Assembly: GCA_963761325.1 (NCBI GenBank)
Contig: CAVXGZ010000001.1
Location: 1,859,020 to 1,891,019, forward strand
Source: an uncultured Actinomycetota bacterium
GTDB taxonomy: Bacteria > Actinomycetota > Actinomycetes > Streptomycetales > Streptomycetaceae
Direction: 5' to 3'
Length of the DNA: 32,000 nucleotides
The position numbers were made by a program, and so were the translations under genes. Shown here piece by piece: positions 5,204 through 30,626 of this stretch. Numbering within the stretch: the stretch's first letter is position 1; each line of letters opens with the position of its first letter. Below the pieces are notes generated by a model that did not search any database, was not told the origin of the DNA, and saw nothing but the letters and a program-made list of their open reading frames with translations.

Positions 5204-5288
5204 GTCCGGGTGGCGGAATGGCAGACGCGCTAGCTTGAGGTGCTAGTGCCCTTTATCGGGCGTGGGGGTTCAAGTCCCCCCTCGGACA
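5204..5288 (+). tRNA. tRNA-Leu (anticodon GAG), class II with long variable arm
   Basis: Folded by hand. The acceptor stem GTCCGGG pairs with CTCGGAC (one G-U), with discriminator A. The anticodon stem-loop is CTAGC-TTGAGGT-GCTAG, giving anticodon GAG. The variable arm is GCCC-TTTATC-GGGC. The T arm is GGGGG-TTCAAGT-CCCCC. Confidence 0.9.
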
Positions 5289-6606: not shown

Positions 6607-6918
6607 GTGGCGGATCTGAAAACTGAGGGTGCGTCGTTGAATGCGGCGTCGTCGAAGATGTCGCATGCGTCGGATCCGTTGACGGGGCCGTTGCGGGAGT
6701 TCACGGCGGCGTCGCATGACCTGTCGGCGTTCGGGGTGTTGGGGTCGTTGCTGAAGGCGACGGGTGAGATCCGGGACGGGATGGAGAAGCTGTCCGGGAT
6801 CGTGGGTTCGCTGGGTGCGGAGTACGACGCGGAGGCCACCGGGCTGGGCGATGTGGCGAAGGTCTTCGACGAGATCGACACCGCGTTGGCCAAGGCCGCT
6901 TCCACGCGGCGGGGGTGA
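6607..6918 (+). CDS. small (103 aa) alpha-helical protein encoded directly upstream of the Rhs toxin; candidate WXG100-size secretion partner or chaperone
   Basis: GTG start with GGGGGGA 5 nt upstream. The stop lies 7 nt before the Rhs start. There is no signal peptide and no Cys or Trp. Two predicted helical halves are separated by SAFGVLG. Its size class and position match small helical partners of T7SS toxins. No family was recognised. Confidence 0.6.
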   Translation: MADLKTEGASLNAASSKMSHASDPLTGPLREFTAASHDLSAFGVLGSLLKATGEIRDGMEKLSGIVGSLGAEYDAEATGLGDVAKVFDEIDTALAKAASTRRG

Positions 6919-6925
6919 GCGGGTC

Positions 6926-11329: not shown

Positions 11330-11342
11330 GGAGGATGGTCAG

Positions 11343-11894
11343 GTGCTTGAGGAGCGGATCGGGGAACTCTGGGAGGAAGCGGCGCGACTCGCCCTTCCGG
11401 TCGTGGCGCATAGGAAACCAGGCGTCCCGGCGGACTTCTTGGAGCGCGCTTTCGACCAGCGGATTCCTTCGGAGGTCGCAACCTGGTTCGCATCCTGCGA
11501 TGGCGTCGATCAGTACCCGGGGCAGACCCAGAATGACGCCGCTCTCGTTCCCGGCTATGAACCGCTCTCCGTCGACCAGTCGGTGGCGATACAGCGTGAA
11601 CAGATGTCGGAACCTCTCCTTCGTCCCACATTCTTTCCGCTGATCGGTGCCGGCGGCGGCGACTTCTACGCAGTGTCGTACGATCCGGAGACACAACGGT
11701 CGTCTGTCGTCAGCGTGGTGATCGGAGAGGAAACGAGGATCGCCTACCGAAGCGTCGATCAAATGGTAGAGACACTTGTTCAGTGCTACCGGGAGGGCAT
11801 CTTCTTCGTCGATGACGATGGCGTACTCCAAGCGGACGATGAACTCTGGATCCAGAAGGAGTACGACGCGCTCGGCATCTCGGCCGAGGAGTAG
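11343..11894 (+). CDS. SMI1/KNR4 (SUKH superfamily) immunity protein cognate to the Rhs toxin tip
   Basis: SUKH-like features are IPSEVATWFASCDG, EPLSVDQ and FFPLIGAGGGDFYAVSYDP. It lies immediately downstream of the toxin stop (11327-11329). GAGGAGGA at 11328-11335 sits 7 nt before GTG 11343; the track start TTG 11322 is the alternative. GC is visibly lower than in neighbouring genes. Confidence 0.8.
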   Translation: MLEERIGELWEEAARLALPVVAHRKPGVPADFLERAFDQRIPSEVATWFASCDGVDQYPGQTQNDAALVPGYEPLSVDQSVAIQREQMSEPLLRPTFFPLIGAGGGDFYAVSYDPETQRSSVVSVVIGEETRIAYRSVDQMVETLVQCYREGIFFVDDDGVLQADDELWIQKEYDALGISAEE

Positions 11895-16957: not shown

Positions 16958-17914
16958 TCAGCCGATGACCTTCCAGTGGTCGTAGGCGCTGATCATCTGG
17001 TAGTTGCGGTCCGGGCAGTAGAAGGCGCTGTTCGGCTGGTCGTAGTGGGTGTCGGCGTTCGCCGAGCTGGCGGGGGACCAGACGCCGTTGTCGCGGACCG
17101 AGATGTTGCTGGACTCGAAGGTCAGGCCGGTCATGTCGTCACAGGAGTACGCGTTGCCGGAGGGGCCGACCGTGGAGTAGAGCTCCTCGATGTCCCAGCC
17201 GTCGGTGCGGCCGGACTGGTTGGTCCCGGACTGGGTGAACAGGGTGTCCCACTGGCCGGTCGCGTAGTCGTAGAGCTGCGCGGACCAGGTGTTGGAGGCC
17301 GAGGAGGTCATGATGACGCGTCCGGTGTACGCGCCGGAGCCGTCGGTGTAGGTGCTCAGGAAGGAGCTGTCGATGGGCACCGAGGCGGCGAAGTTGACGC
17401 TCTGGCACCAGTCCCAGGCGGAGACCGAGCGGACGGACTGCGTGTAGACGGTGACGAGTTCGACGCAGGAGCCGCCGGGCGGGTACATGGTCGGGGTGTA
17501 GATGGTGGTGTAGCCGTCCGAGACGTTGAGCTGGGTGGAGACCGACTGGGTGGCGCACGAGCCGTCCGCGCCGGACATCGCCTTGAACGAGGTGCCCTGC
17601 GCCGGATGGATGTCGACCAGTGGCCGCCGTGTGGAGTCACCGGCGGTCCCGAGCGGGCCCTTGGCGGGTATCCCGTACTGCGCGCGGTGCTGCGCGGTGA
17701 GGGACGAGAGCTGGCGGTGCACCTCCGCCGTGGGCAGCGCCCCGCGGACGGTGTGCCGGGATACGGCCGCGGAGCTGCAGACGTCCGCCGCGCGGGGGCT
17801 CGCGGCGGGGTGTGCGGCGTGCGCGGGGCTGGCGGCGGCGGCGCCCAGACCGCAGCCCAGGACCAGGGCTGCTGCGGCGGCGAAGACGGCCGCCGTGGAC
17901 TTCAGACTTCTCAC
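16958..17914 (-). CDS. secreted (possibly lipo-) protein of unknown function, Ser/Thr/Tyr-rich and probably beta-rich
   Basis: The start is set at GTG 17914 (GAGAGGA about 10 nt upstream); the track extension to 18220 is R/P-rich junk. The signal peptide VRSLKSTAAVFAAAAALVLGCGLGAAAA contains an LGC lipobox-like motif. The mature part has paired Cys residues and many aromatic residues. No family was recognised with confidence. Confidence 0.7.
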   Translation of the reverse strand: MRSLKSTAAVFAAAAALVLGCGLGAAAASPAHAAHPAASPRAADVCSSAAVSRHTVRGALPTAEVHRQLSSLTAQHRAQYGIPAKGPLGTAGDSTRRPLVDIHPAQGTSFKAMSGADGSCATQSVSTQLNVSDGYTTIYTPTMYPPGGSCVELVTVYTQSVRSVSAWDWCQSVNFAASVPIDSSFLSTYTDGSGAYTGRVIMTSSASNTWSAQLYDYATGQWDTLFTQSGTNQSGRTDGWDIEELYSTVGPSGNAYSCDDMTGLTFESSNISVRDNGVWSPASSANADTHYDQPNSAFYCPDRNYQMISAYDHWKVIG

Positions 17915-18475
17915 GCTGATGCGATCCTCTCGGGAGGGCCAAGGGATGTGCGCAAAACATGTCCATGACAAGGCATGTCGATCAAAAAGAGAAGCCTTCG
18001 GTCGACTGTTGTCCGTCCGGGGTCGAGAAAAGTCCGGTTCCGCAGGTCCCGGGCCGGCGCCGGCGGGCCCGCGCCCTCCGGGCGCCGATGGTCCGACGCG
18101 GCGCGCGGCGCCGGGAGTTGGGGGCGGCCGGGCCGGGCGGCCGGTTCGCCCGAGATCACCCTCGATGGTCATTGAGGGCGCCGGAAGAGCCAATGAGCAG
18201 GCAATTCGCTGATCATTCAAGCGCCTTGTAATGGTAAAGCAAAGGTATAGAACCTTTTGAAAGGGTTGTCGGGGTGGGCCTGCCGGGCTACTTTTCCCGA
18301 GGCCCGTCTCCGGACCGGAACGGCCAGATATCCACGCAAATCGCGCAAGCGGGTCGCCACCGGCAGCTCAAGTGCCCCCGGCGGCCCGTCCGTTCCACGG
18401 CTCCACGGTTCATCAACCAGCTCCAGGTTTTCCCCCGGACCCAGCTCAGGTTCATCAACCACAGGAGGCACCACC

Positions 18476-19699
18476 TTGCGCAGACCCGCGCCCGCGGCCT
18501 TACGCCGCACCGGGCTCTCAGTGATCGCCGCCGCCGGACTCGCCCTCGGCGGTTTCGCGGCTGCCCCCTCCGCCAGTGCCGCGCAGGCCGGCCCCGCCGT
18601 GCACGGCGTGACCGTGACCCACTCCTGCGCCGCCCCGCGCGCCGGTTACCTGGCCTGCAACGCCCTGAAGGTCACCAGCGGCACGCACACCTCCGTCATC
18701 TCGCCGCTGGCCACGCCTTCCGGCTACGGGCCCACCGACCTGCTGAGCGCGTACGCCCTGCCGGCCAACGGCGGCGCGGGCCAGACCGTCGCGATCGTCG
18801 ACGCCCAGGACAACCCCAACGCGGCCTCGGACCTCGCCGTGTACCGGTCCACCTACGGCCTGCCGGCCTGCACGGTGGCGAACGGCTGCTTCAAGAAGGT
18901 GAGCCAGACCGGCAGCACCACCTCGCTGCCCTCCCCCGACGCGGGCTGGGCGGAGGAGGAGTCGCTGGACGTCGACATGGTCTCGGCCATCGCGCCCAAC
19001 GCCCACATCATCCTGGTCGAGGCGAACTCCGCCACGATGGCCAACCTCGGCGCGTCGGTCAACGAGGCCGTCTCGCTGGGCGCCAAGTTCGTCTCCAACA
19101 GCTACGGCGGCGGTGAGTCGTCGTCCGACACCTCGTACGACTCCTCCTACTTCAACCACACCGGCGTCGCCATCACCGCCAGCTCCGGTGACAGCAGCTA
19201 CGGCGTGGAGTACCCGGCGGCCTCCCGCTACGTCACGGCGGTCGGCGGCACCACCCTCAACCGCGCCTCCAACAGCCGCGGTTGGAGCGAGACCGTGTGG
19301 TCCGGCGCCGGATCCGGCTGCTCGGCGTACGACGCCAAGCCGTCCTGGCAGAAGGACACCGGCTGCTCCCGGCGCACCGTGGCCGACGTCTCCGCGGTGG
19401 CCGACCCGAACACCGGTGTCGCGGTCTACGACACCTACGGCGGCGACCCGGGCTGGGAGGTCTTCGGCGGCACCTCGGTCGCGTCGCCGATCATCGCCTC
19501 GGTCTACGCCGACGCCGGCACCCCGTCGGCCGGCTCGACCCCGTCGTCGTTCCCCTACGCCCACACCGGGAACCTCAACGACGTGACGAGCGGCTCCAAC
19601 GGCTCGTGCAGCCCGGCCTACCTGTGCACCGGTGAGGTCGGCTACGACGGCCCGACCGGTCTCGGCACCCCGAACGGGCTCACCGCCTTCAAGGGCTGA
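18476..19699 (+). CDS. secreted S53 (sedolisin/kumamolisin-like) family serine peptidase
   Basis: YGPTDLLSAYALP, GQTVAIVDAQDNP, EESLDVDMVSAIAPNAHIILVE, ITASSGDSSYG and the nucleophile motif GGTSVASPIIAS are characteristic of S8/S53-clan sedolisins. The start is set at TTG 18476 (AGGAGG 7 nt upstream). The signal LRRPAPAALRRTGLSVIAAAGLALGGFAAAPSASA has a possible Tat-like RR. Confidence 0.85.
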   Translation: MRRPAPAALRRTGLSVIAAAGLALGGFAAAPSASAAQAGPAVHGVTVTHSCAAPRAGYLACNALKVTSGTHTSVISPLATPSGYGPTDLLSAYALPANGGAGQTVAIVDAQDNPNAASDLAVYRSTYGLPACTVANGCFKKVSQTGSTTSLPSPDAGWAEEESLDVDMVSAIAPNAHIILVEANSATMANLGASVNEAVSLGAKFVSNSYGGGESSSDTSYDSSYFNHTGVAITASSGDSSYGVEYPAASRYVTAVGGTTLNRASNSRGWSETVWSGAGSGCSAYDAKPSWQKDTGCSRRTVADVSAVADPNTGVAVYDTYGGDPGWEVFGGTSVASPIIASVYADAGTPSAGSTPSSFPYAHTGNLNDVTSGSNGSCSPAYLCTGEVGYDGPTGLGTPNGLTAFKG

Positions 19700-19773: not shown

Positions 19774-22548
19774 TCAGTCGGCGCCCGCCAGGCCGGCGAG
19801 CTTGGTGTCGAGCCGGTCCGCGGTGGCGGTGTGGCCCAGTTCGACGAAGATGTCGAGGGCGTGCTGCCAGACCTCCCGGGCGGTGTCGGGATCGCCCGCG
19901 GCGTGTGCGGTGTCGCCGAGGTGGGCGAGCAGGGACGCCTCGTTGAACCGGTCGCCGCACTCGCGGTAGATGTCGCGGGCGCGTTCGTAGCAGGTGATGG
20001 CCTGCTGGTGCCGGCCGACGTTGTGGTGCACGAGGCCCAGGGTGTCCAGGGTGGAGCTCTCGCCGCTGTGGTCGCCGATCTCCCGCTGACGGGCGAGGGC
20101 GCTCTCGCAGAAGTCGACCGCCTCCGCGTACCGGCCGAGCTGCGTGTTGCACCAGCCGATGTTGTTGAGCGCCCTGGCCTCGCCGACCTGGTTGTTCGCC
20201 GCCTGGTACTTCCGCAGCGCCCGGGTGGCCTGGTCCAGCGCCCGGTGCAGGTCGTGTTGCCGTTCGAAGACGAGCGTCAGGTTGTTGTGGCAGTGCGCCT
20301 GGCCGAGCGGGTCGCCGAGTTCCCTGAAGAGCGCGACGGCTCGGTGCAGCAGGCGGTCGGCCTCGTCGTAGCGGCCCATCCTGGCGTTGGCCCGGCCCAG
20401 TTCGCTGTGCGCCGCCGCCTCCCCGGGCCGGTCGCCGAGCCGGTGGGCGGCTTCGAGGGCCGCGTGCTGGGTGGCGGCCCAGTCGTGCCAGTGGCCGCGC
20501 TGTTCGAGGTAGCTCGACATGGTGCGGGCCAGGTACCCGACCTGGGTGTCCGCGGCCGAGTCGACCGCGGCCAGCAGGGTCTGGTGCTCGGCGGCGAACC
20601 AGGCCAGCGCGCTGTCGCGGTCGGCGAAGGCCGCCGGCGGCACTCCGGGCCCGGGCGCGGGGAGTTCGATCGGGTCGCGGTGGCCCAGCATCGCGCCGGC
20701 GGCGTGTGCGGTGTGCAGGTAGTGGTCGACCAGCCGTTGCCGGGCGGTGGCCTGGTCCGCGGGCATGACGTCGTCGTGGGCGAGGGTGGTGGCGTAGGCC
20801 CGGAGCAGGTCGTGCATGCCGTAGCGGTCGGTGCCGGTCAGGTGGACCAGCTGCGCGCGGGTGAGCATGGTCAGGGCCGCGCGGGTGTGCTCCGGGGTGC
20901 GCCCGGCGAGGGCGGCGCAGGCGTTCAGCGAGATGTGCGGGCCCAACTGCAATCCCAGCAGCCGGAAGACGCGCGCCGCGGCGGCCGGCAGGTGCTGGTA
21001 GGACCAGGAGAAGACCGCGCTGACCGAGTAGCCGACCGAGTCCAGCATGCCCAGCCGCCGCCGGCGGTCGGTCAGTTCCGACACCAGGTCGGGCAGCGGG
21101 GTGGTGCGCTCCGTGGCGGCGAGCTCCGCCGCCACCCGCAGCGCCAGCGGCAGCCCCACGCACTGGTTGACCAGCGCCTCGCCGACCGCCGGCTCGCGGT
21201 CGACGCGGTCGCCGATCAGCCTGCGTAACAGGTCCAGCGAGTCGTCCATCGGCAGCAGGCCGAGGCCGACCCGCCGGGCGCCGTGCCGGGCGACCAGCCC
21301 GCCCAGGGTGTCGCGGCTGGTCACCGCGACCGCGCAGGACCCGGTGCCGGGCAGCATCGGCCGGACCTGCTCCACCGAGGAGGCGTTGTCCAGCACGACG
21401 AGGATCCGGCGGCCGCTGACCTCGGTGCGGTACCGGGCGATCCGGTCGGCCGCCTCCAACGGGATCTCGTGGGCGGGCAGTCCCAGCGCGGACAGCAGCC
21501 TGGCCAGTGCCTCGGTGCCGGACAGCGGCTGCTGCGGCGCGTAACCGTGCAGGTCGACGTAGAGCTGGCCGTCCGGGAAGCGGGCCCGCGCCTGGTGCGC
21601 CCAGTGCAGGACCAGCGTCGTCTTGCCGACCCCGGCCGTCCCGGACACCACCGCGATGGGCACCGCGGTGCCGTCGGTCCCGAGCAGGATCTGGTCCAGG
21701 TCGCCGAGTTCGCGCTGCCGGCCGACGAAGTCGGTCACGTCGCCGGGCAGGGTGGCGGGCACCATCCGGCGCGGTGACCGCCCGGCGCGGCGTCCGGTGT
21801 CCTTCGCCAGGAGCGCGCCGTAGGCGGAGACCAGCTCGGGACCCGGGTCGATGCCGAGCTCGTCGGCGAGCGTCCGCCGGGCCTGGTGGTAGGTGCCGAC
21901 CGCCGCCGCCCGCCGGCCGGCCGCGTCGTAGCCGCGGATGAGGCGTGCCAGGGCCGCCTCGTCCAACGGACGGGCGTGCGCGGCCTGTTCGAAGAGCACG
22001 ACGGCCTCGTCGACCGCTCCGGTGGCCAGCAGCATCTCACCCTTGGCCGCCGTCGCCGCGATCCGTTCCTCGATCAGCGCGAGGACCGGTGGATGAGCCG
22101 CCAGCGCGGGCACGTCGGTCAGCGGCGAGTCCGCCCGCCACAGGTCCAGCGCGGAGTCCAGCAGCGCGAGGGCGCCCGCGTGGTCGCCCGTCTGCTGGGC
22201 CGCCGCGGCCCGGCTCACCCGGGCGCGGAAGGAGAGGACGTCGAGTTCGCAGCTCTGGGTGCGCAGCACGTAGCCGTCGCCGACCGACGGAAGCAGCGAG
22301 CTGGGCGTGCGGGGCGTCCGGTCCGGTTCGAGCAGCCGGCGCAGGTGCTTGACGTGGGTCTGCAGGACGTTGACCGCGGAATGGGGCGGGCCGTCGGACC
22401 ACATGGCGTCGATGAGCTCCGCCCGGGAGACCGGCCTGCCCGCCGCCAGCCCGAGCAGGCCGAGGACCGCCCGCCGACCCGCCGTCGGCACGTCGAGGTG
22501 GACGCCGTCCCGTAAGACCCGCACCGGGCCGAGCAACTGGACCTGCAC
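19774..22548 (-). CDS. AfsR/SARP-family large transcriptional regulator (OmpR-type winged helix + BTAD + NB-ARC ATPase + TPR)
   Basis: The N-terminus VQLLGPVRVLRDGVHLDV..RAVLGLLGLAAGRPVSRAELIDAMW is the SARP DNA-binding domain. The BTAD region reads DVLSFRARV..ALALLDSALDLWRADSPL..RLIRGYDAAGRRAAAVGTYHQARRTLADELGIDPGPEL. The Walker A motif is VSGTAGVGKTTL. The C-terminus has TPR-like repeats (YAEAVDFCESALA.., HQQAITCYERARDIY..). GTG start at 22548 with GGGGGGA 7 nt upstream. Confidence 0.9.
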   Translation of the reverse strand: MQVQLLGPVRVLRDGVHLDVPTAGRRAVLGLLGLAAGRPVSRAELIDAMWSDGPPHSAVNVLQTHVKHLRRLLEPDRTPRTPSSLLPSVGDGYVLRTQSCELDVLSFRARVSRAAAAQQTGDHAGALALLDSALDLWRADSPLTDVPALAAHPPVLALIEERIAATAAKGEMLLATGAVDEAVVLFEQAAHARPLDEAALARLIRGYDAAGRRAAAVGTYHQARRTLADELGIDPGPELVSAYGALLAKDTGRRAGRSPRRMVPATLPGDVTDFVGRQRELGDLDQILLGTDGTAVPIAVVSGTAGVGKTTLVLHWAHQARARFPDGQLYVDLHGYAPQQPLSGTEALARLLSALGLPAHEIPLEAADRIARYRTEVSGRRILVVLDNASSVEQVRPMLPGTGSCAVAVTSRDTLGGLVARHGARRVGLGLLPMDDSLDLLRRLIGDRVDREPAVGEALVNQCVGLPLALRVAAELAATERTTPLPDLVSELTDRRRRLGMLDSVGYSVSAVFSWSYQHLPAAAARVFRLLGLQLGPHISLNACAALAGRTPEHTRAALTMLTRAQLVHLTGTDRYGMHDLLRAYATTLAHDDVMPADQATARQRLVDHYLHTAHAAGAMLGHRDPIELPAPGPGVPPAAFADRDSALAWFAAEHQTLLAAVDSAADTQVGYLARTMSSYLEQRGHWHDWAATQHAALEAAHRLGDRPGEAAAHSELGRANARMGRYDEADRLLHRAVALFRELGDPLGQAHCHNNLTLVFERQHDLHRALDQATRALRKYQAANNQVGEARALNNIGWCNTQLGRYAEAVDFCESALARQREIGDHSGESSTLDTLGLVHHNVGRHQQAITCYERARDIYRECGDRFNEASLLAHLGDTAHAAGDPDTAREVWQHALDIFVELGHTATADRLDTKLAGLAGAD

Positions 22549-22646
22549 GTCTGGATCCCCCCGCGCTCTCCCCGGACCCTTCGACGCACGCGAAGGATGA
22601 CTCGTCGTCCAGTCGCCATCCAGTGGTGCTTCATAGCTTAATCGAG

Positions 22647-22671
22647 GAACTCAACCGGGGGAGAACTCAAC
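22647..22671 (+). promoter_or_regulatory. direct repeat GAACTCAAC x2 in the SARP/operon divergent intergenic region (candidate activator-binding site)
   Basis: GAACTCAAC occurs at 22647-22655 and again at 22663-22671 (16-nt register). It lies in the lower-GC part of the 140-nt intergenic region, just upstream of the first operon gene. No clear -10 hexamer was seen. Confidence 0.3.
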
Positions 22672-22688
22672 GTGATCGGCGATGACGC

Positions 22689-23729
22689 ATGTCCGGGTCC
22701 GGACGTGCCGGCGGTGCTGGTGGGCGGCTCGTGACGCTGCGTCTGCACGCCAACGAACACCCGCAGGGCCCGCCCGCCGGCATCGTCGACGCCCTGCACG
22801 CGCTCATCCCGCAGCTGCACCGGTACCCGGCTCCGTCCAGCGCCCTGCAGACCGCGATAGCGGAGCTGCACGACGTCCCGCTGAACCGGGTCCTGGTCGG
22901 CGCGGGCAGCGCCGAGATCATCAGCCTGGCCTGGCGGGCGTTCACCGGCCCGGCCAAGGCGGTCTTCTTCCACGAGCCCGAGTTCGAGTTCTACCGGATG
23001 CTGAGCGCCCAGTGCGGCTCCCCGACGCTCACCCGGCCGTGGCCGCTCGGCGAGGACCTGGCCGCACACCTGGCGGGTGAGCGGGTCGGACTGGTGGCCC
23101 TGTCCAACCCGCACAATCCCACCGGCGCCCGGCGGCCCAGGCAGGAGATCGCGGAGCTGGCGCGCGGCCTGCCCGACTCGACGGTCCTGCTCAACGACGA
23201 GGCGTACCACGACTTCGCGGACGTGGACGACGCCGAACCCTCGCTGCGGGCCATGTCCGAGCTGCCCAACGTGCTGACCACCAGGACCTTCTCCAAGATC
23301 CACGGGCTGGCCGGCCTGCGGATCGGCTACGGGGTCGGCGACGCCCGCCTGATCAACGCGCTGCGAACGCTGCAGACGCCGTTCAGCGTGAGCACGGCCG
23401 CCGGCACCGCCGCACTCGCCGCGCTCGCCGACCCGGCCGCCCTGGTGGAGCGTCGCGCGCGCAACCGGGAGCAACGGGAGGCGCTGGCGGCGCAGTTGAC
23501 CCGGCGCGGCTTCGAGGTGTCGCCGAGCCAGGCCAACTTCCTGTTCGTCCGGCCGCCGCACGGCCGCTCCACCTGGGCCACCGATCTGCTCGACCACGGT
23601 GTCCGCGTCCAACCGTTCGATGCCGACCTGCGGGTGACCGTGGGCTCCGCCACCGAGGTCGCCGCTCTCATCGAGGCGGTCGACCACCTTCTGTCGTCCG
23701 TTCAGCCGAGCACCCTGGGGGAATCATGA
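22689..23729 (+). CDS. histidinol-phosphate aminotransferase family (class II PLP-dependent) aminotransferase
   Basis: LHANEHPQGPP is an LNENP-like N-terminal motif. LSNPHNPTG, LNDEAYHDF and the PLP-lysine motif RTFSKIHGLAGLRIGYG are also present. The alternative start is GTG 22731. Confidence 0.85.
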   Translation: MSGSGRAGGAGGRLVTLRLHANEHPQGPPAGIVDALHALIPQLHRYPAPSSALQTAIAELHDVPLNRVLVGAGSAEIISLAWRAFTGPAKAVFFHEPEFEFYRMLSAQCGSPTLTRPWPLGEDLAAHLAGERVGLVALSNPHNPTGARRPRQEIAELARGLPDSTVLLNDEAYHDFADVDDAEPSLRAMSELPNVLTTRTFSKIHGLAGLRIGYGVGDARLINALRTLQTPFSVSTAAGTAALAALADPAALVERRARNREQREALAAQLTRRGFEVSPSQANFLFVRPPHGRSTWATDLLDHGVRVQPFDADLRVTVGSATEVAALIEAVDHLLSSVQPSTLGES

Positions 23730-24724
23730 CCGAGCACACCATCGACGACGTCTTCAACAACACGCTCTCGGCATACGCGATATCGGCGGCGTGGGAACTC
23801 GGCCTGCTGGAGCGGCTGGAGCGGTCCGAGCCGGTGGACCTGGCGGAGTTCGCCCGGGAACAGGACCTGCACGCACCCTCGCTGGAGGCCATCGCCCGGG
23901 GGCTGGCGCTCGCCGGGACCATCGTCCTCACCCCGGACCGCGCGATCGCCTCGCCCGGCCCGCTCTTCGGCGAGACCATGGCCAAGAAGGGCTTCTTCTA
24001 CTGGCTCACCCGCGGCTGCGGCGAACTGTTCACCACCATGCCGCAGGCGGTCAGGAACGCCAACCGCACCGGGGACTTCGTGGTCCGCGACTACAAGGCG
24101 ATCGGCCTGGCCGCACGCGACGCGGGCTTCTCCTACGTGGACCCGGCGTTCTACAAGATCATCGCGGACCGCGGCCTCACCTTCGGCGCGGACCTCGGCT
24201 GCGGCAGCGGCGAGCGGCTGATCAAGCTCGCCTCCCGGGACCCGCGCTTCCGCGGCATCGGTGTGGACGTCGCCCCGGGCGCGCTGGCGCTGGCCACCGA
24301 GTCGGTCGCCGAGGCCGGGTTCAGCGACCGGGTCTCGGTGGTGCGCGGCGACGCCAAGCAGATGGCCTACCGCCCGGAGTTCGGCCAGGTCGACTTCGTC
24401 TGCTCCTTCATGATGGGACACGACCTGTGGCCGCGCGAGGAGTGCGTGGCGAGCCTGAAGCTGATCGGCGAGGCGTTCCCGGCCGCCACCGACCTGATCA
24501 TCTGCGACACCTACCGCTCCGACCTCGCGCCCACCGCGACGCATCCGGTCTTCACCCTGGGCTTCGAGACCGCGCACGCCGTCATGGGCCAGCTGATCCC
24601 CTCGCTGGACGAGTGGACCGATGTGCTGGCCGAGGCGGGCTGGCACCGGGCCGACGTCGTCGACTTCGACCTGCCGCCGTACACCGCGCTGATGCACCTC
24701 ACCCGGGAGCTGTCGCAGGCATGA
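23726..24724 (+). CDS. class I SAM-dependent methyltransferase with OMT-type N-terminal winged-helix/dimerisation domain
   Basis: The N-terminal LSAYAISAAWELGLLERLERSEPVDLAEFA resembles the dimerisation/wHTH domain of family-2 O-methyltransferases. The SAM motif I is FGADLGCGSGERL, followed by GIGVDVAP. An ATGA start/stop overlap with the upstream gene lies at 23726-23729. Confidence 0.8.
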   Translation: MTEHTIDDVFNNTLSAYAISAAWELGLLERLERSEPVDLAEFAREQDLHAPSLEAIARGLALAGTIVLTPDRAIASPGPLFGETMAKKGFFYWLTRGCGELFTTMPQAVRNANRTGDFVVRDYKAIGLAARDAGFSYVDPAFYKIIADRGLTFGADLGCGSGERLIKLASRDPRFRGIGVDVAPGALALATESVAEAGFSDRVSVVRGDAKQMAYRPEFGQVDFVCSFMMGHDLWPREECVASLKLIGEAFPAATDLIICDTYRSDLAPTATHPVFTLGFETAHAVMGQLIPSLDEWTDVLAEAGWHRADVVDFDLPPYTALMHLTRELSQA

Positions 24725-26025
24725 ACGAGCGGGCCACCCCGGGCAGGCACATCCTCATCCTGAACCGGTTCGACCAGGAGGTGGGCTGCCGCTACACCGA
24801 GTACATCGACCACACCGCCGACCGGGTCGCCTACCTCACCTCCGAGAAGGGGCGCAGCGGCGTCGACCCCGGACCGGCCGAGACCGTGGCCGTCGTTCAC
24901 GACCTCGCGGACTGGGCGGCGGTCTCGCGGCTGGCCCAGGACGTCGTGCGGCGGTTCGGGCCGCTGGACCACGTCGTCGCGCTGTTCGAGCGCGACCTCG
25001 AAGTCGCGGCCGCGCTGCGCGAGTTGCTGGGGGTGGCCGGGCCCCGCCCGGCCGACGTCGACCGGGTGCGCGACAAGGTGACGATGAAACGCCTGGTCGC
25101 CGCCGCGGGCCTGCGGGTGCCGCGTTTCGTCGACGCCGACGATCCCGCGCGGGTGCGCCGGTTCGCCGACGAGACCGGCTTCCCGCTGGTGATCAAACCC
25201 CGCGACGGCTCGGGGAGCCAGGGCATCTACCTGGTCAACTCCGCCGCCTCGCTGGAGGAGACGCTCGCCTCGCCGCTGGAGAACTACGAGTGCGAGGAGT
25301 TCGTCACCGGGACGATGTACCAGGTCGACGGCGTGGTGCAGGACGGGACCGTGCGGGTGCTGCGCGCGTTCCGGCTGCTCAACACCTGCCTGGACTACGC
25401 CCTGGGCGACTCGTTCGGCTCGGTCGCCAGCGACGACAGGCAGTTGGAGAAGGTGCTCGTCGGGTACGCGGAGCTGGTGCTGGCCGCCCTCGGCGTGCGC
25501 AGCAGCGTCTTCCACCTCGAGGTCTTCACCGTCGACCCGGCCGGGCCGGGGGAGTACGGCGGGCTGGTCTTCCTGGAGGTGGCCGCGCGGGCCGGCGGCG
25601 CGGAACTGCCGCACCTGTGGCGCGAGGTCTACGGGCTCGACCTGCTGGAGGTCGCCGCCCGGCTGGCGCTGGGGGAGTCGCCGTCCTGGGGTCCGCTCGA
25701 TCCCGAGGGCAAGGCCGGCGGCTACCTGCTGATGCCGGAACCGCCGGTCAGGCCGTGCCGCGTGCTGTCGACGACCTCGCTCATCGACGCGGTACCCGCG
25801 ATGTACGCGGAGATCCTGCCCGAGCCGGGCGAGATCCTCAACGGCACGGGCGGCGCGAAGGAGACCGGCGGGCGCTACCGGTTCCGGGCGGACAGCGGGG
25901 CGGAGATCGAGCTCGCCATCCGGCAGGTACTCGCCGGCTACCACCTGGTCTCGGAACCGGTCTCCGAACACGACGTCGAGGTCTTCCGGGTGGCCGGCCG
26001 CAGGCAGTCCGTGGCGCGTCCGTGA
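24721..26025 (+). CDS. ATP-grasp domain ligase (L-amino-acid-ligase-like)
   Basis: DKVTMKRLVAAAGLRVPRF..FPLVIKPRDGSGSQGIYLV..CEEFVTGTMYQVDG..FHLEVF..FLEVAARAGGAEL follows the ATP-grasp pattern. The real start is ATG 24721, with an ATGA overlap onto the methyltransferase stop. The 744-aa track ORF from 23791 is an off-frame read-through artefact. Confidence 0.8.
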   Translation: MNERATPGRHILILNRFDQEVGCRYTEYIDHTADRVAYLTSEKGRSGVDPGPAETVAVVHDLADWAAVSRLAQDVVRRFGPLDHVVALFERDLEVAAALRELLGVAGPRPADVDRVRDKVTMKRLVAAAGLRVPRFVDADDPARVRRFADETGFPLVIKPRDGSGSQGIYLVNSAASLEETLASPLENYECEEFVTGTMYQVDGVVQDGTVRVLRAFRLLNTCLDYALGDSFGSVASDDRQLEKVLVGYAELVLAALGVRSSVFHLEVFTVDPAGPGEYGGLVFLEVAARAGGAELPHLWREVYGLDLLEVAARLALGESPSWGPLDPEGKAGGYLLMPEPPVRPCRVLSTTSLIDAVPAMYAEILPEPGEILNGTGGAKETGGRYRFRADSGAEIELAIRQVLAGYHLVSEPVSEHDVEVFRVAGRRQSVARP

Positions 26026-27269
26026 GCCTCCCGTCGTCGCCGCGGTTCGGCCAGGCGCTGGCCGTCCGAGAGTTCCGCGTGCTGTGGCTGGCCCAGCTGA
26101 CGTCGGTCGGCGGCGACCAGCTCGCCAGGGTGGCGCTGACCCTGCTGGTGTTCACCCGCAGCGCGTCGGCGGGTCTGGCCGCGCTGACCTACGCCCTCAC
26201 CCTGCTGCCCGACCTGCTCAGCGGTCCGCTGCTGTCCTGGCTGGCGGACCGCTACCCGCGGCGCGGCCTGATGATGGTGTGCGACCTGACCCGCACGGGC
26301 CTGGTCGCCGCCATGGCCGTGCCCGGCACCCCGCTGTGGCTGCTGTGCGTCCTGCTGGTCGTCGTGCAGCTGCTGCAGTCGCCGTACATGTCCGCACGCT
26401 CGGCGCTGCTGGCGACGATGATGCGCGGCGAGCGCTACCTGGCCGCCGCCGCGGTCGTCAACGTGACCGCCCAACTCGGCCAGGTCGCCGGGTTCGCGGT
26501 GGGCGGAGTGGTGGTCGCGCTGCTGGGCCCCTCGCAGGCGCTGCTGATCGACGCCGGCACGTTCCTGGCGTCGGCGGTCCTGACCTGGTTCGGCATCGCG
26601 CGGCGCCCGAGGCCGACCGGCCCCGCGCCCGGCGGCGGCAGGTGGAGCGCGATCACCGGGGGAGCCGGCCTGGTCCGGGCCGACCGCAGGCTGCGTCTGC
26701 TGGTGGTGTTCGGCTGCCTGTCGGGCTTCTACGTGTGCACGAACGGGCTGGCGATTCCCTACGCCCACGCCCTGGGCAACAGCGCGGCCGCGGCCGGACT
26801 CCTGCTCGCGGCGGCCCCCACCGGCACGGTCCTCGGGGTGTTCGTCGTGACCCGCTGGGTGCGCCCGGACCGCAACCTGTGGCTGCTCGGCCCGCTGGCG
26901 ATCGCCGCCTGTCTGGTGCTGGTGTTCACCGTGCTGTCCCCGGGCATCGCCGTCACCTGCGCGCTGTGGGGGATATCCGGGCTGTTCTCCGCCTTCCAGG
27001 TCCCCGCGAACACCGCGTACGGCACCTGGGTCCCCGACGCCGTCCGCGGCCAGGCGTTCGGACTCGCCTCCACCGCGGTGCGGGGAGCCCAGGGGCTCGG
27101 TATCGCGCTCGCCGGCTTCGCCGCCGAATTCGCCCCGGTGCCGATCGTCATCGCGGTGTTCGGGCTGCTGGGGGTGGCGGCCTCCGGGGTGCTCACGATC
27201 AGTTGGTCGAAGATCTGCCGGGTGCCCGTCGAGGTGCCGCGTGAACCCGTGCTCCATCCCATTCCCTGA
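26022..27269 (+). CDS. MFS transporter (EntS/MFS_3-like putative exporter)
   Basis: FRVLWLAQLTSVGGDQLARVALTLLVF..LSGPLLSWLADRYPRRGLMM is typical of EntS-like MFS exporters, with about 12 predicted TM segments. GTG 26022 overlaps the ATP-grasp stop (GTGA at 26022-26025). The track ORF from 25290 is an artefactual extension. Confidence 0.85.
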   Translation: MSLPSSPRFGQALAVREFRVLWLAQLTSVGGDQLARVALTLLVFTRSASAGLAALTYALTLLPDLLSGPLLSWLADRYPRRGLMMVCDLTRTGLVAAMAVPGTPLWLLCVLLVVVQLLQSPYMSARSALLATMMRGERYLAAAAVVNVTAQLGQVAGFAVGGVVVALLGPSQALLIDAGTFLASAVLTWFGIARRPRPTGPAPGGGRWSAITGGAGLVRADRRLRLLVVFGCLSGFYVCTNGLAIPYAHALGNSAAAAGLLLAAAPTGTVLGVFVVTRWVRPDRNLWLLGPLAIAACLVLVFTVLSPGIAVTCALWGISGLFSAFQVPANTAYGTWVPDAVRGQAFGLASTAVRGAQGLGIALAGFAAEFAPVPIVIAVFGLLGVAASGVLTISWSKICRVPVEVPREPVLHPIP

Positions 27270-27299
27270 CCCTGCCGACCTTCCAGCCGAGGACGCCGA

Positions 27300-28667
27300 A
27301 TGACCGCGCCCGTTCTGACCTCCACCACCGTCGAACCACCGCCGCAACTGCACGGCACCATGCGTCCGCGCCACCTCACCATGCTCGCGATGGGCGGTGT
27401 GATCGGGTCCGGCCTCTTCGTCGGATCCGGCGCGGGCATCGCGGCGGCCGGGCCGGGCATCGTGGTGTCGTTCGTGGCCGCGGGCGCGCTCACCATGGTG
27501 GTGATGCTCATGCTGGCGGAGATGGCCGCCGCGTTCCCGTCCAGCGGCTCGTTCTCCGCGCACGCGGAACGGGCGTTCGGCCCGTGGGCCGGGTTCACCA
27601 TCGGCTGGCTGTACTGGGTGACCCTCGTCGTGGTCCTCGCCCTGGAGTCGACCGCGGCGGCGATCATCGTCAACGGCTGGCTGCCCGCGGTCCCGCAGTG
27701 GCTGCTGATGCTGCTGTTCATGGCGGTCTTCACCGCGGTCAACCTCACCGAGGTCGCGAACTTCGGCGAGTTCGAGTTCTGGTTCGCCCTCATCAAGGTC
27801 GCGGCGATCGTCGGCTTCCTGGTGCTGGGCGTGCTGGCGATCGTCGGCGTGCTTCCCGGCGGCAGCACCCGGGCCCTGACCGGCGGCCTGCTTCCGCACG
27901 GCTGGTCCGGCGTGGGACTGGGCCTCATCACCGCCGTCTCGGCCTTCGGCGGGCTGGAGATCGTCACCATCGCCGCCGCCGAGTCCGAGGACCCGGCCCG
28001 GGCCACCGTCCAGGCGGTCCGCAGCGCGGTGTGGCGCATATCGGTCTTCTACATCGGCTCGATGGCCGTCATGGCGAGCCTGCTGCCGTGGAACGACTCG
28101 CGCCTCGGCTCCAGCCCGTTCGTCGCGGTCCTCGACGACATCGGCGTGCCCGCCGCCGGGCGGATCATGAACGTCATCGTCCTGATCGCCCTGCTGTCCG
28201 CCCTCAACGCCAACACCTACGCGGCCGCCCGGATGGTCTTCTCCCTGGCCCAGCGCCGCCAGGCTCCCAGGTTCCTGACCCGGCTGAACCGGATGGGCGT
28301 CCCCTACGCGGCCGTTCTGGCGTCCGCCTCGTTCGGCTTCGTCGGCGTCGTCCTGAACCTGCTGTGGCCGCGCACGATCTTCCTGCACCTGCTCGACGCG
28401 ATCGGCACGGTGCTCCTGCTGGTCTGGATCCTGGTGGCCGCCTCCCAACTCCGGCTTCGCCGCAGCCTGCCCGTCTCGGCGCCGGTCAGGATGTGGGGGT
28501 ACCCGTATCTGAGCTGGGCCGCCCTGACCGCCATGGTCGCGCTGCTCGGGTACATGTTCGTCGAGCCCGGCACCCGGATCCAGCTGATCAGCTCGGCGGT
28601 CCTCGCGGTGGTCGTGCTGTCCGTCGCGCTGGTCCGCTCCCGCCGGATCGCCGCCCGCCGGGGCTGA
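27300..28667 (+). CDS. amino acid permease (APC superfamily, AAT family)
   Basis: MRPRHLTMLAMGGVIGSGLFVGSGAGIAAAGPGIVVSF..AEMAAAFPSSGSF..FEFWFALIKVAAIVGF is the classical amino-acid permease signature. The protein is 455 aa with about 12 TM segments. Confidence 0.9.
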   Translation: MTAPVLTSTTVEPPPQLHGTMRPRHLTMLAMGGVIGSGLFVGSGAGIAAAGPGIVVSFVAAGALTMVVMLMLAEMAAAFPSSGSFSAHAERAFGPWAGFTIGWLYWVTLVVVLALESTAAAIIVNGWLPAVPQWLLMLLFMAVFTAVNLTEVANFGEFEFWFALIKVAAIVGFLVLGVLAIVGVLPGGSTRALTGGLLPHGWSGVGLGLITAVSAFGGLEIVTIAAAESEDPARATVQAVRSAVWRISVFYIGSMAVMASLLPWNDSRLGSSPFVAVLDDIGVPAAGRIMNVIVLIALLSALNANTYAAARMVFSLAQRRQAPRFLTRLNRMGVPYAAVLASASFGFVGVVLNLLWPRTIFLHLLDAIGTVLLLVWILVAASQLRLRRSLPVSAPVRMWGYPYLSWAALTAMVALLGYMFVEPGTRIQLISSAVLAVVVLSVALVRSRRIAARRG

Positions 28668-28724
28668 ACCGGCGCCGCCCGGCCACCACTCCCACGGAAA
28701 CCACCGCACAGTGAAGAGGTTCAG

Positions 28725-30086
28725 ATGGATGGCGTGTCCCTGACGCAGGAGTACCTGGACGAGGTGGCCCGAAGCGGCGCCAAGGCCGGTGAGTTGACGG
28801 GCCGTCAGCCGGAGTCCGACCTGCTCAACACGTTCTACGCGGGCAAGTACCTCTCGCGCCCGCTGTTCATCGGGCACGCCGAGCGGGTCCGGCTCCACGC
28901 CGACCTGGAGAACCTGCGGACCGCGCTGGCCGGCCTGCCCGACCGGCTGTTCGGCGGCGACTTCGCGGCGTTCGCCCGCGCGGTGGGCCTGTCCGAGGTC
29001 CAGGTCTCCGCCGTCATGCGCGGCAGGGGCGCCTCGATGACCCGGCAGACCCGGGCCGATCTGTACCTCGACGCGACCGGGTTCAAGCTGCTGGAACTCA
29101 ACATAGGCAGCGCGGTCGGCGGAATGGACAACGCCGACATGTGCCGCGCGCTGCTCGAACACCCGGTGCTCGCCGACTTCGCCAGGAGCCGCGGGCTGGG
29201 CTACGTGGACTCGCTGCGCGAGCAGGTGAACAACATCATCGCGGAGTGCGGCTTCGAGCCCGGCGACCGTCCGATGGTCGCGCTGACGGACTCCCCGCAC
29301 AGCTACGTCGAGATGATTCCGTACATGCGGCTGCTGTGCGAGCGCTGGGCGGAGCTGGGCCTGGACGCCCACCCGTGCCACCTGGGGCAGTTGGAGGCGC
29401 GCGACGGCCGGGTCTGGCTCGGCGACCGGCCGGTGGACGTCGTCTTCCGGACGTTCCTGATCGGGGACCTGGTGAAGTACCCGCAGATGCCGGCGCTGAT
29501 GGATCCGGTCCTCGACGCGGCGGAGCGCGGCGAGGTCAGGATCTTCACGCCGATGGACTCCGCCGCGTACGCCAGCAAGGGCGCCCTCGCGCTGCTGTCG
29601 GACGAGCGCAACCGGGAGCTGTTCAGCGCCGAGGAACTGGCCAGCCTGGACCGCATCCTGCCGTGGACGCGGATGGTCCGGCGCGGTCCGGTCACCCTGG
29701 AGGACGGCGAGCGCGTCGACCTCGTCGAGTACGCCCTCGCGCACCAGCGGGACCTGACGCTCAAGCCGACCTCGCTGGCCGCCGGCGACGGCGTGCTGCT
29801 CGGCTGGGCGGACGGCCTGACCGCGCGGCAGTGGCGCGAGCAGGTGCTCGCCGCGCTCGACGGCCCGTTCATCCTCCAGCGCCGGATCCGCCCGACCCCC
29901 GAGCTGTTCCCCGACGAGAACGGCGAACTGCGGCCGTGGACCACCCTGTGGGGGGTCTTCACCGTGGTCAACGGCTACGGGGGCGCTTTCATCCGGGCCA
30001 CCCCCGCCGCCTCCGGCGAGGTCGTGGTGAACATCGCGAACGGAGCGCACGGCGGCGCCCTGCTCCAGGAGATGGCCGAACGCTGA
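28725..30086 (+). CDS. ATP-grasp-fold-like ligase of uncertain family (glutathionylspermidine-synthase / circularly-permuted ATP-grasp-like signature)
   Basis: RADLYLDATGFKLLELNIGSAVGG resembles the R-x-D-x..G-x-K-LLE-x-N strand-loop of GSP-synthetase-like and permuted ATP-grasp proteins. The protein is cytoplasmic, 453 aa, with no TM segment. The assignment rests on motif memory only. Confidence 0.5.
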   Translation: MDGVSLTQEYLDEVARSGAKAGELTGRQPESDLLNTFYAGKYLSRPLFIGHAERVRLHADLENLRTALAGLPDRLFGGDFAAFARAVGLSEVQVSAVMRGRGASMTRQTRADLYLDATGFKLLELNIGSAVGGMDNADMCRALLEHPVLADFARSRGLGYVDSLREQVNNIIAECGFEPGDRPMVALTDSPHSYVEMIPYMRLLCERWAELGLDAHPCHLGQLEARDGRVWLGDRPVDVVFRTFLIGDLVKYPQMPALMDPVLDAAERGEVRIFTPMDSAAYASKGALALLSDERNRELFSAEELASLDRILPWTRMVRRGPVTLEDGERVDLVEYALAHQRDLTLKPTSLAAGDGVLLGWADGLTARQWREQVLAALDGPFILQRRIRPTPELFPDENGELRPWTTLWGVFTVVNGYGGAFIRATPAASGEVVVNIANGAHGGALLQEMAER

Positions 30087-30161
30087 CGCCGCCGCGCCGC
30101 CGGGACCGTCCGACCGACTGCGCATGTCCGCGCCAAGAAGCGGTCGGGTAGATTCGGCGGT

Positions 30162-30626
30162 ATGACGATCACCGCTGTCGATGCCGGACCCCGCAGGATC
30201 AGCCGGTCGGTGGACGTGGACAAGTCCGCGTCCGCGCTGTTCGACGTCGTGGCGGATCCACACCGGCACGGTGAACTCGACGGGTCGGGCACCGTGCAGG
30301 ACACCGTCAGCGGGCCGCACCGGCTCGCGCGGGGCGAGAGGTTCTCGGTGCGGATGCGGATGTTCGGCCTGCCGTACAAGATCACCAGCACGGTCACCGC
30401 GTTCGAGGACGGACGCGTCGTGGAGTGGCAGCACCCGAACGGGCACCGCTGGCGCTGGGAGTTCCAGCCGGTCTCCGAGAACACCACGCGCGTGACCGAG
30501 ACCTTCGACTACAGCGTCATCGGTCCCGTCAAGGCCCGCACCCTCGAACTCCTCGGCATGCCCGGGAAGAACGCCGCGGGCATCGAGGCCACCTTGCGCC
30601 AACTGCGCGAGCGGCACACGAACTGA
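30162..30626 (+). CDS. SRPBCC (START/Bet v1/polyketide-cyclase-like) family protein
   Basis: A 154-aa protein reading ISRSVDVDKSASALFDVVADPHRHGELDGSG..WRWEFQPVSENTTRVTETFDYS, typical of actinobacterial SRPBCC ligand-binding proteins. Confidence 0.8.
   Translation: MTITAVDAGPRRISRSVDVDKSASALFDVVADPHRHGELDGSGTVQDTVSGPHRLARGERFSVRMRMFGLPYKITSTVTAFEDGRVVEWQHPNGHRWRWEFQPVSENTTRVTETFDYSVIGPVKARTLELLGMPGKNAAGIEATLRQLRERHTN

Follow-up and report, generated by a model that had tools for sequence, protein, structure and literature searches.

A candidate SARP-activated operon for an NRPS-independent small peptide containing a β-methylated aromatic amino acid

The peptide antimetabolites bacilysin, rhizocticin, tabtoxin and the dapdiamides, all assembled by ATP-grasp ligases, are potent "Trojan-horse" antibiotics. 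Their L-amino-acid ligases, such as BacD of bacilysin and RizA of rhizocticin, have a common fold, and the bacilysin pathway combines its ligase with an aminotransferase for a building block (BacF) and a major facilitator superfamily (MFS) exporter (BacE). Methylated amino acids come from small cassettes of their own: mrsABC, for 3-methylarginine in Pseudomonas syringae, and ArgM/ArgN, for arginomycin, pair an aminotransferase with a 2-oxo-acid methyltransferase (and an exporter); the amino acid that they make is either set free or used in a nucleoside pathway. For phenylalanine, MppJ methylates phenylpyruvate and an aminotransferase then yields β-methylphenylalanine (β-MePhe), while HisC-type enzymes interconvert phenylalanine and phenylpyruvate (PMC11496134); JomM, 55% identical to MppJ, makes β-MePhe for jomthonic acid (PMC6117699). 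In the mannopeptimycin (MppJ) and jomthonic acid (JomM) pathways a nonribosomal peptide synthetase (NRPS) receives the residue, and transamination falls to a housekeeping enzyme encoded outside the cluster. Here we analyse a stretch of 32,000 nucleotides from an uncultured Actinomycetota bacterium of the Streptomycetaceae (assembly GCA_963761325.1, contig CAVXGZ010000001.1, positions 1,859,020 to 1,891,019), referred to throughout as the window. Within it a gene for a Streptomyces antibiotic regulatory protein (SARP) faces an operon encoding an aminotransferase, an MppJ-type methyltransferase, an ATP-grasp ligase, transporters and a predicted second amide ligase of a different fold.

The cluster very probably makes a small NRPS-independent peptide. 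The initial annotation of the window had proposed a SARP-controlled cluster of this kind, built around an ATP-grasp ligase with an exporter, and every computational test that we ran supports the proposal. The seven same-strand genes that it placed divergent from the SARP gene were all confirmed by translation and by frame analysis of G+C content at third codon positions (GC3, 0.92-0.96). The junctions between them are exactly as it had described: stop and start codons overlap at ATGA 23726-23729 (genes 1 and 2), ATGA 24721-24724 (genes 2 and 3) and GTGA 26022-26025 (genes 3 and 4), and the later intergenic gaps measure 30, 57 and 75 nt. The base composition of the window is of the actinomycete type (72% G+C). 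The genes are:

19774-22548, minus strand: SARP gene, divergent from the seven plus-strand genes; large AfsR-like activator, 924 aa (Pfam Trans_reg_C 1.9e-9, BTAD 9e-31, NB-ARC, TPR_12)
22731-23729, plus strand: gene 1, HisC-type pyridoxal phosphate-dependent class I/II aminotransferase, 332 aa (Pfam Aminotran_1_2, 2e-46)
23726-24724, plus strand: gene 2, putative MppJ-type S-adenosylmethionine-dependent α-keto-acid β-C-methyltransferase, 332 aa (phmmer against the PDB, MppJ at E 2.7e-82)
24721-26025, plus strand: gene 3, predicted ATP-grasp L-amino-acid ligase, 434 aa (AlphaFold2 model, mean pLDDT 88.6; Foldseek against the PDB)
26022-27269, plus strand: gene 4, MFS efflux-type transporter, MFS_3/EntS-like (DHA3), 415 aa (Pfam MFS_1, MFS_3)
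27300-28667, plus strand: gene 5, APC-family amino-acid permease nearest to γ-aminobutyrate (GABA) permeases, 455 aa (Pfam AA_permease, 5e-107)
28725-30086, plus strand: gene 6 (G6), predicted second amide ligase, 453 aa (AlphaFold2 model, mean pLDDT 90.7; Foldseek)
30162-30626, plus strand: gene 7, SRPBCC (Polyketide_cyc2) protein (Pfam Polyketide_cyc2, 1.6e-12)

Pfam searches of the 32-kb window found no condensation, adenylation, peptidyl carrier protein (PCP) or ketosynthase (KS) domain of an NRPS or polyketide synthase (PKS), and the window holds no recognisable precursor of a ribosomally synthesised and post-translationally modified peptide (RiPP) accompanied by maturases. The earlier statement that NRPS, PKS and RiPP precursor genes are missing is borne out for the synthases; it had overlooked a small conserved upstream open reading frame (uORF), described below, which is itself not recognisable as a precursor. 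The spacer between the SARP gene and gene 1 is 140 nt when counted to ATG 22689, the start originally given to gene 1. Since the stretch following this ATG is not conserved as coding sequence in an alignment of orthologues, GTG 22731 is the likely start.

Eight loci, from at least seven assemblies that span Streptomyces, Kitasatospora and Actinokineospora, show the same order of genes at 65-87% amino-acid identity (look-ups together with a tblastn table). The Kitasatospora carriers are K. gansuensis, a second assembly that encodes exactly its gene 6 protein, and Kitasatospora sp. DSM 101779; those in Streptomyces are spp. NPDC091268, NPDC058674 and NPDC056224 and Streptomyces sp. GenBank CP108509; Actinokineospora is represented by Actinokineospora alba. 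Because the order is kept in eight independent loci across three genera, the arrangement is not due to chance. The unit comprises six structural genes and a regulator: the SARP gene reads away from a 20-codon uORF (optional), the aminotransferase, the methyltransferase, the ATP-grasp ligase, the MFS transporter, the APC permease (optional) and the 453-aa protein encoded by gene 6. In the relatives, genes 4, 5 and 6 overlap or lie at most 14 nt apart, and gene 6 is the final cistron of a tightly packed operon at every locus. The cassette is rare and patchy, with about 40 protein clusters at 55% identity or more to the gene 3 ligase, and its flanks are unrelated from genome to genome, while the SARP gene is present at every locus. 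The initial annotation had stated that conservation of the operon in primary-metabolic contexts without a SARP would speak against its reading; no such context was found among the eight loci, which answers that objection. At one of these loci (L090) an NRPS lies nearby and belongs to an adjoining, non-conserved cluster.

Gene 7 had been counted as part of a seven-gene cassette, and we rejected it as a member of the unit, no homologue adjoining the cassette in any orthologous locus. Our searches of the window detected no terminator separating gene 6 from gene 7, and the two may be co-transcribed in this strain. A TAGATT sequence (window 30146-30164) stands 9 nt before the ATG of gene 7 and may be a promoter of its own, giving a nearly leaderless transcript.

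The methyltransferase, left generic until now, points to the building block. Gene 2 matches MppJ with 280 bits over residues 4-307 (46% identity over 302 columns), and the next families reach at most 56 bits; the runner-up PDB entries are the methyltransferase 8ftv/8ftr (about 4e-14) and the 2-ketoarginine methyltransferase 8r4z (4e-9), and the match to TIGR04543 is weak (53 bits). Five MppJ residues, numbered on the assumption of a 20-residue tag in 4kib, are identical in gene 2: W99, R127, H243, D244 and H295 correspond to W93, R121, H232, D233 and H284. We take these residues to be the iron and substrate ligands, contacting the metal and the carboxylate. Gene 1 scores 236 bits against the TIGR01141 hisC model, below its cut-off of 277, and its PDB sequence matches are HisC enzymes together with 4r2n, a putative phenylalanine aminotransferase. 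With gene 2 assigned to the MppJ type, the building block is defined, probably as a β-methyl aryl amino acid, and the presence of a coupled aminotransferase is explained. Gene 2 is a full-length homologue of MppJ, and as in the mannopeptimycin and jomthonic acid pathways, methylation of a 2-oxo acid would be framed by transamination; unlike them, this cassette has a dedicated, translationally coupled aminotransferase, lacks an NRPS and continues with ATP-grasp ligases. The mrsABC and ArgM/ArgN cassettes share the three-part logic in one small operon. They act on arginine rather than an aromatic substrate, gene 2 being far nearer to MppJ than to the ketoarginine enzymes, and the present cassette adds two ligases.

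The modelled fold of gene 3 is that of an L-amino-acid ligase, the function first proposed for it. Its six best Foldseek matches in the PDB are all L-amino-acid ligases (RizA, BL00235 and BacD/YwfE; E 4e-29 to 4e-23, target-normalised TM-score (TMt) 0.68-0.82), at sequence identities of 15-18%. RizA heads the list (4e-29, TMt 0.82) and is also the best phmmer match in the PDB (4wd3, 4e-13). Outside this cassette, gene 3 has relatives of less than 50% identity, which sit in cassettes with multiple ligases and an MFS_3 exporter; neighbours of these relatives carry the LAL_C2 and ATPgrasp_N domains. A PGM1-type ligase, the other comparison offered at the outset, was rejected, as no PGM1 appears among the listed PDB sequence matches or the listed top 50 fold matches of gene 3. 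The bacilysin analogy holds for the trio of ligase, building-block aminotransferase and MFS exporter and fails for anticapsin: the Pfam searches of the window found no counterpart of BacA, BacB, BacC or BacG, that is, no prephenate decarboxylase, isomerase or short-chain dehydrogenase/reductase genes. Further differences from bacilysin are the second ligase of another fold, the SARP and the actinomycete host. Phosphonate genes are also absent from the window.

Gene 6, which had been placed in the operon without a name and is now seen to be part of the conserved unit, would be the second amide ligase, a circularly permuted ATP-grasp enzyme. Its model matches human, plant and yeast glutathione synthetases (GS) at 5e-17 to 1e-13, and also 3n6x, a putative glutathionylspermidine synthetase (GspS), E. 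coli GspS and YgiC/YjfC; E-values for the GS and GspS fold run from about 1e-17 to 1e-12. All 40 PDB fold matches at E ≤ 1e-3 are GS, homo-GS, GspS, YgiC/YjfC or 3n6x, with identities to these GS/GspS-type enzymes of 13-18%. Across 28 homologues the residues E124-x-N126, K285, K347, R386/R387 and E393 are invariant, a pattern compatible with what we take to be the ExN and lysine set of glutathione synthetase. Only three to six of the 28 give weak matches to CP_ATPgrasp_1/2 or GSP_synth (best 4e-6). Because Pfam does not recognise gene 6 and detects few of its homologues, and these weakly, the protein appears to belong to a separate, uncurated family of the GS/GspS superfamily. Enzymes of this fold phosphorylate the C-terminal carboxylate of a peptide, which is then attacked by an amine (PMC11117183), and by analogy with eukaryotic GS, GspS and YgiC/YjfC, with which gene 6 would share the circularly permuted fold, an acyl-phosphate and amine attack would be expected here as well. 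Taken together, the two models predict that the cassette holds two amide ligases of different folds. We also considered kinship of gene 6 with the PEARL/LanB enzymes, and rejected it: there is no Lant_dehydr match, and no LanB-type structure is among the listed top 50 fold matches. What can be kept is an analogy of mechanism.

Gene 6 differs from GS, GspS and YgiC/YjfC in its setting, which is that of secondary-metabolite cassettes and of fusions to NRPS, PKS and ligase modules. It is conserved in all eight loci, and close homologues (62-70% identity) terminate other, quite different amino-acid-derived cassettes:

L006, 711-11377: 3-deoxy-D-arabino-heptulosonate 7-phosphate (DAHP) synthase, chorismate-utilising and LarC-like genes with a gene 6 homologue
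L091, 12951-20854: SfmD-type peroxidase and ATP-grasp genes with a gene 6 homologue
L092, 1827-11359 (Actinomadura gamaensis): two haem-oxygenase-like proteins, a Rieske protein, a protein arginine methyltransferase (PRMT)-like methyltransferase, two ATP-grasp ligases, an MFS transporter and a gene 6 homologue
L097 and L101: TauD dioxygenases, glutamate-mutase E subunit and truncated class II aminoacyl-tRNA synthetase-like proteins with a gene 6 homologue

The first two of these have a set of genes in common, namely DAHP synthase, AMP-binding, chorismate-binding, PurE/LarB-like and LarC-like (Ni_insertion) proteins and a ferredoxin-reductase-like flavoprotein. The Actinomadura gamaensis cassette is reminiscent of N-methyl-arginine and N-N bond chemistry of the streptozotocin type. 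The gene 6 family as a whole is large, with 2,066 clusters at 50% identity found at E ≤ 1e-3 and 219 at 1e-30 (HMMER library search), and on metagenome contigs its members often stand in tandem or beside ATP-grasp genes. Fusions are of several kinds. Two proteins join the family to an L-amino-acid ligase (P0270, and an 869-aa protein at L089, 11317-13926); the 3684-aa P0329 consists of an NRPS module (condensation domain, PCP and thioesterase) followed by about five tandem family copies; in P0378 (1933 aa) a family domain is fused to a PKS module of KS and acyltransferase; and others carry an M20 peptidase or an ABC-2 membrane domain, the fusion proteins including P0250 and P0313. These architectures suggest a link between the gene 6 family and natural-product amide formation on free carboxylates. 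Two to four tandem paralogues, often adjoining a divergent MFS gene, were seen on the metagenome contigs L106, L107, L110, L115, L119, L122 and L126. The idea that an MFS gene and gene 6 travel as a homologous pair was rejected, the MFS proteins beside other gene 6 homologues being not detectably related to gene 4; what recurs is the gene 6 family alone.

Of the two transporters, the MFS protein was expected to be an exporter and appears to be one: gene 4 is of the efflux type, scoring 135 bits against the H+ antiporter model TIGR00900 and 55 bits against EntS, and is conserved in 8/8 loci. Gene 5 scores 476 bits against TIGR01773 GabP, below the cut-off of 678. The APC permease is in the operon at seven of the eight loci, overlapping its neighbour in L003 and L090, and is absent in Actinokineospora alba. 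Its inclusion in the cassette is therefore upheld, though as an accessory and dispensable member.

The regulator has the architecture of a large SARP, with an OmpR-type winged-helix DNA-binding domain, a BTAD, an NB-ARC/AAA ATPase and TPR repeats. It shares the winged helix and BTAD (with or without NB-ARC and TPR) with the activators of known SARP-dependent promoters (ActII-ORF4, DnrI and AfsR-type large SARPs). It is not an AfsR orthologue, reaching 496 bits against an NCBIfam AfsR cut-off of 1430, and its own orthologues (72-80% identity) flank the cassette at every locus. The gene had been called free of TTA codons, which is incorrect: in-frame TTA codons occupy residues 12 and 441 (22513-22515 and 21226-21228, minus strand). 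At least one TTA, at varying positions, is found in six of the eight SARP genes checked (five of seven orthologues), so the SARP is likely to depend on bldA.

Upstream of gene 1 we found two conserved elements that the initial annotation had missed, a candidate SARP box and the uORF. The promoter region contains:

22607-22624, plus strand: candidate SARP box GTCCAGTcgccATCCAGT, heptamers GTCCAGT and ATCCAGT with starts 11 nt apart (N4 between)
22634-22639, plus strand: −10-like hexamer TAGCTT, picked out by conservation alone, its first base 16 nt beyond that of the proximal heptamer
22672-22734, plus strand: uORF of 20 codons, VIGDDACPGPDVPAVLVGGS, with a GTG start 8 nt after the ribosome-binding site (RBS) GGGGGAG and a TGA overlapping the GTG of gene 1

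The 11-bp spacing of the heptamers is the classical geometry of SARP sites (PMC10972967). The pair occurs once in the window, where none is expected (100 shuffles), and ends 9 nt upstream of the −10-like hexamer. In a seven-locus alignment CGTCCAGTC..TCCAGT is invariant, and L004, L008 and L090 have three copies of the heptamer. TAGGTT, TAGGCT or TAGCTT is found at the identical +16 offset in six loci (the window, L003, L004, L008, L009 and L172). Direct repeats of heptamers with an 11-bp period just upstream of the −10 region are also the arrangement of known SARP-activated promoters; the difference is that the heptamer GTCCAGT is specific to this cassette, and that the box here is a prediction from sequence. 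A scan for intrinsic terminators returned nothing useful.

A uORF of 19-21 codons with GTGA coupling to gene 1 is present in the same six of the eight loci. The strong RBS GGGGGAG precedes the uORF and not gene 1. The uORFs of Streptomyces and Kitasatospora have an N-terminal xGxDA(C/Y)PGP motif in common, which the Actinokineospora copy lacks. The uORF is absent from L090 and L052, where all the enzymes are intact, and for this reason we think that it probably serves as a leader or for coupling, and not as a substrate.

From the gene content, homologies, folds, conserved synteny and cis elements observed here, we infer the substrates, the order of steps and the product as follows. The AfsR-like SARP, whose translation would require the bldA tRNA owing to its TTA codons, would bind the GTCCAGT heptamer pair overlapping the −35 position and activate the promoter, giving a transcript that begins with the short uORF translationally coupled to gene 1. 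The HisC-type aminotransferase would turn L-phenylalanine, or an aromatic amino acid close to it, into the arylpyruvate; the MppJ-type methyltransferase would add a methyl group at C-3; and the same aminotransferase would re-aminate the methylated keto acid to β-MePhe. The L-amino-acid ligase would then couple the β-methyl residue, via an acyl-phosphate, with a second amino acid, and gene 6 would phosphorylate the free carboxylate of the gene 3 product and add an amine, yielding a tripeptide or a peptide-amine conjugate. The EntS-like MFS protein would export the product, and the GabP-like permease, where present, would bring in a substrate or re-import the product. The product would most likely be a di- or tripeptide that contains β-MePhe or a close analogue and is exported. 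The whole chain, an orphan SARP-activated operon for a small NRPS-independent peptide with a β-methylated aromatic amino acid, is the account that we favour on balance.

Several findings weigh against parts of this scheme. For the first of them, the pocket of gene 2, positions equivalent to MppJ V300, F245, D296 and Q102 are altered (to Q, L, A and R), and because of these differences the keto-acid substrate may be other than phenylpyruvate itself. The building block could then be β-methyltyrosine, β-methyltryptophan or a β-methyl amino acid with an aliphatic or basic side chain. This would fit the altered positions, the inclusion of 2-ketoarginine and other α-keto substrates in the methyltransferase family, and an identity to MppJ (46%) that is lower than that between JomM and MppJ (55%). 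Nevertheless, among solved structures MppJ is much the nearest relative (280 against at most 56 bits), the presumed metal and carboxylate ligands are conserved, and the partner aminotransferase is of the HisC/aromatic type. We consider a building block other than β-MePhe unlikely, although it is the strongest of the alternatives.

The ligases contribute most of the remaining points. Gene 3 exceeds the Pfam ATP-grasp_4 cut-off barely (28.1 bits against 27), and Pfam detects neither LAL_C2 nor ATPgrasp_N in it. Gene 6 has no Pfam match even at E ≤ 1, and no NCBIfam or PDB sequence match, so that its assignment as an amide ligase rests on the predicted fold. It is also far better conserved from cassette to cassette (62-70%) than the first ligase (below 50%), which could mean that its target is other than the varying product. 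On this alternative the dipeptide made by gene 3 is the end product, and gene 6 has a constant accessory job, such as synthesis of a common co-substrate, protection of the producer by conjugating a free toxic amino acid, or modification of a cellular target. The retention of 62-70% identity among otherwise unrelated enzymes, where gene 3 relatives fall below 50%, is what such a job would lead one to expect, and at L097 and L101 no classical ATP-grasp gene could be detected within 10 kb. The fusions of family domains to L-amino-acid ligase, NRPS and PKS modules point instead to a role on the pathway product, as do the position of gene 6 as last cistron of a tight operon at every locus and the known enzymes of its fold, which are ligases acting on peptide carboxylates. 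An accessory role seems to us somewhat less likely again than a different building block. We tentatively propose, as possible though short of probable, that gene 6 represents an unrecognised and widespread GS-fold family of stand-alone carboxylate-amine ligases that extend the free carboxylates of small natural products, and that with gene 3 it makes an exported tripeptide-like antimetabolite here. As part of the same tentative reading, the family would have been recruited singly, in tandem or as fusions in actinomycetes as a modular, thiotemplate-free means of C-terminal extension.

At the promoter, the scan for a consensus sigma-70 promoter gave no match, which is the last of the points on this side. 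A bolder version of the gene 6 proposal is that the conserved uORF peptide may be a scaffold for its chemistry, acting as acceptor for one of the ligases in the manner of a pheganomycin-like hybrid or of a pearlin-like scaffold, with extension at the C-terminus and later cleavage. In its favour, the RBS of the uORF is strong and GC3 is higher in the uORF frame (16 of 20 codons against 9 of 14, by hand count); the uORF keeps a constant length, the xGxDA(C/Y)PGP motif and small C-terminal residues at six of eight loci, and enzymes of the gene 6 fold act on peptide C-termini. We nevertheless regard this as very improbable: L090 and L052 dispense with the uORF and retain intact enzymes, the Actinokineospora copy is without the sequence motif, gene 3 has no PGM1 among its sequence matches or listed top 50 fold matches, gene 6 has no LanB/PEARL match in Pfam, and the stop/start overlap with gene 1 resembles that of a translational-coupling leader. 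That the operon lies outside secondary metabolism altogether, serving amino-acid salvage, catabolism or stress through transamination, methylation, glutathione-like thiol or peptide synthesis and transport, is scarcely credible: the HisC-like, GabP-like and GS-like parts do have primary-metabolic relatives, but the unit always comes with a pathway-type SARP that has a conserved box of its own, is uncommon and scattered (about 40 protein clusters at 55% identity or more) across three genera with unrelated flanks, falls below the equivalog cut-offs of the HisC and GabP models, and includes a methyltransferase of the MppJ type, known only from natural-product pathways.

The remainder of the window, from 1 to 19.7 kb, was considered for cluster members and rejected, since none of its genes is biosynthetic and none is kept beside the cassette in relatives. 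It encodes an MFS protein, AsnC- and LysR-type regulators, an SBF transporter, FdhD, a cNMP-binding protein, an RHS toxin, a GH43 hydrolase, an FMN reductase, a SHOCT protein and two ORFs without hits. Its sole very large ORF is:

6764-11329, plus strand: RHS-repeat toxin, 1521 aa, with DUF6531, an RHS core and a C-terminal NucA/NucB DNase

Small ORFs without hits lie 3' of the toxin gene (e.g. 11322-11894) and could encode immunity proteins. Two further ORFs, 16958-18220 (minus strand) and 18257-19699 (plus strand), are well supported as coding (GC3 > 0.9) and have no Pfam match; flanked by a PLDc_N/SHOCT gene on one side and the 3' end of the SARP gene on the other, they are absent from this position in the orthologous loci. 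A tRNA gene (5204-5288, plus strand) stands between the FdhD-like and cNMP-binding protein genes, and was the sole match in an Rfam scan of the window for riboswitches and leader RNAs.

In summary, the individual parts of this cassette are known: MppJ and JomM, the logic of mrsABC and ArgM/ArgN, the BacD and RizA ligases, GS and GspS, and SARP boxes. What sets it apart among ligase-built small-peptide clusters is a dedicated pair of enzymes for β-methylation together with, as second ligase, a member of an uncharacterised family with predicted GS fold; a literature search found no characterised cluster combining these genes, in keeping with what had been supposed when the locus was annotated.

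Looking forward, clusters of ligase-made peptide antimetabolites may escape mining that is centred on NRPS, PKS and RiPP signatures. The cassette described here is a tractable example of six genes, with boundaries drawn from eight genomic contexts, a dedicated activator, a predicted and identifiable operator, and one building block, a β-methyl aromatic amino acid, that can be predicted. If the substrate of gene 6 were solved, about 2,000 sequence clusters could be annotated, and the family could add a new amide-forming biocatalyst.

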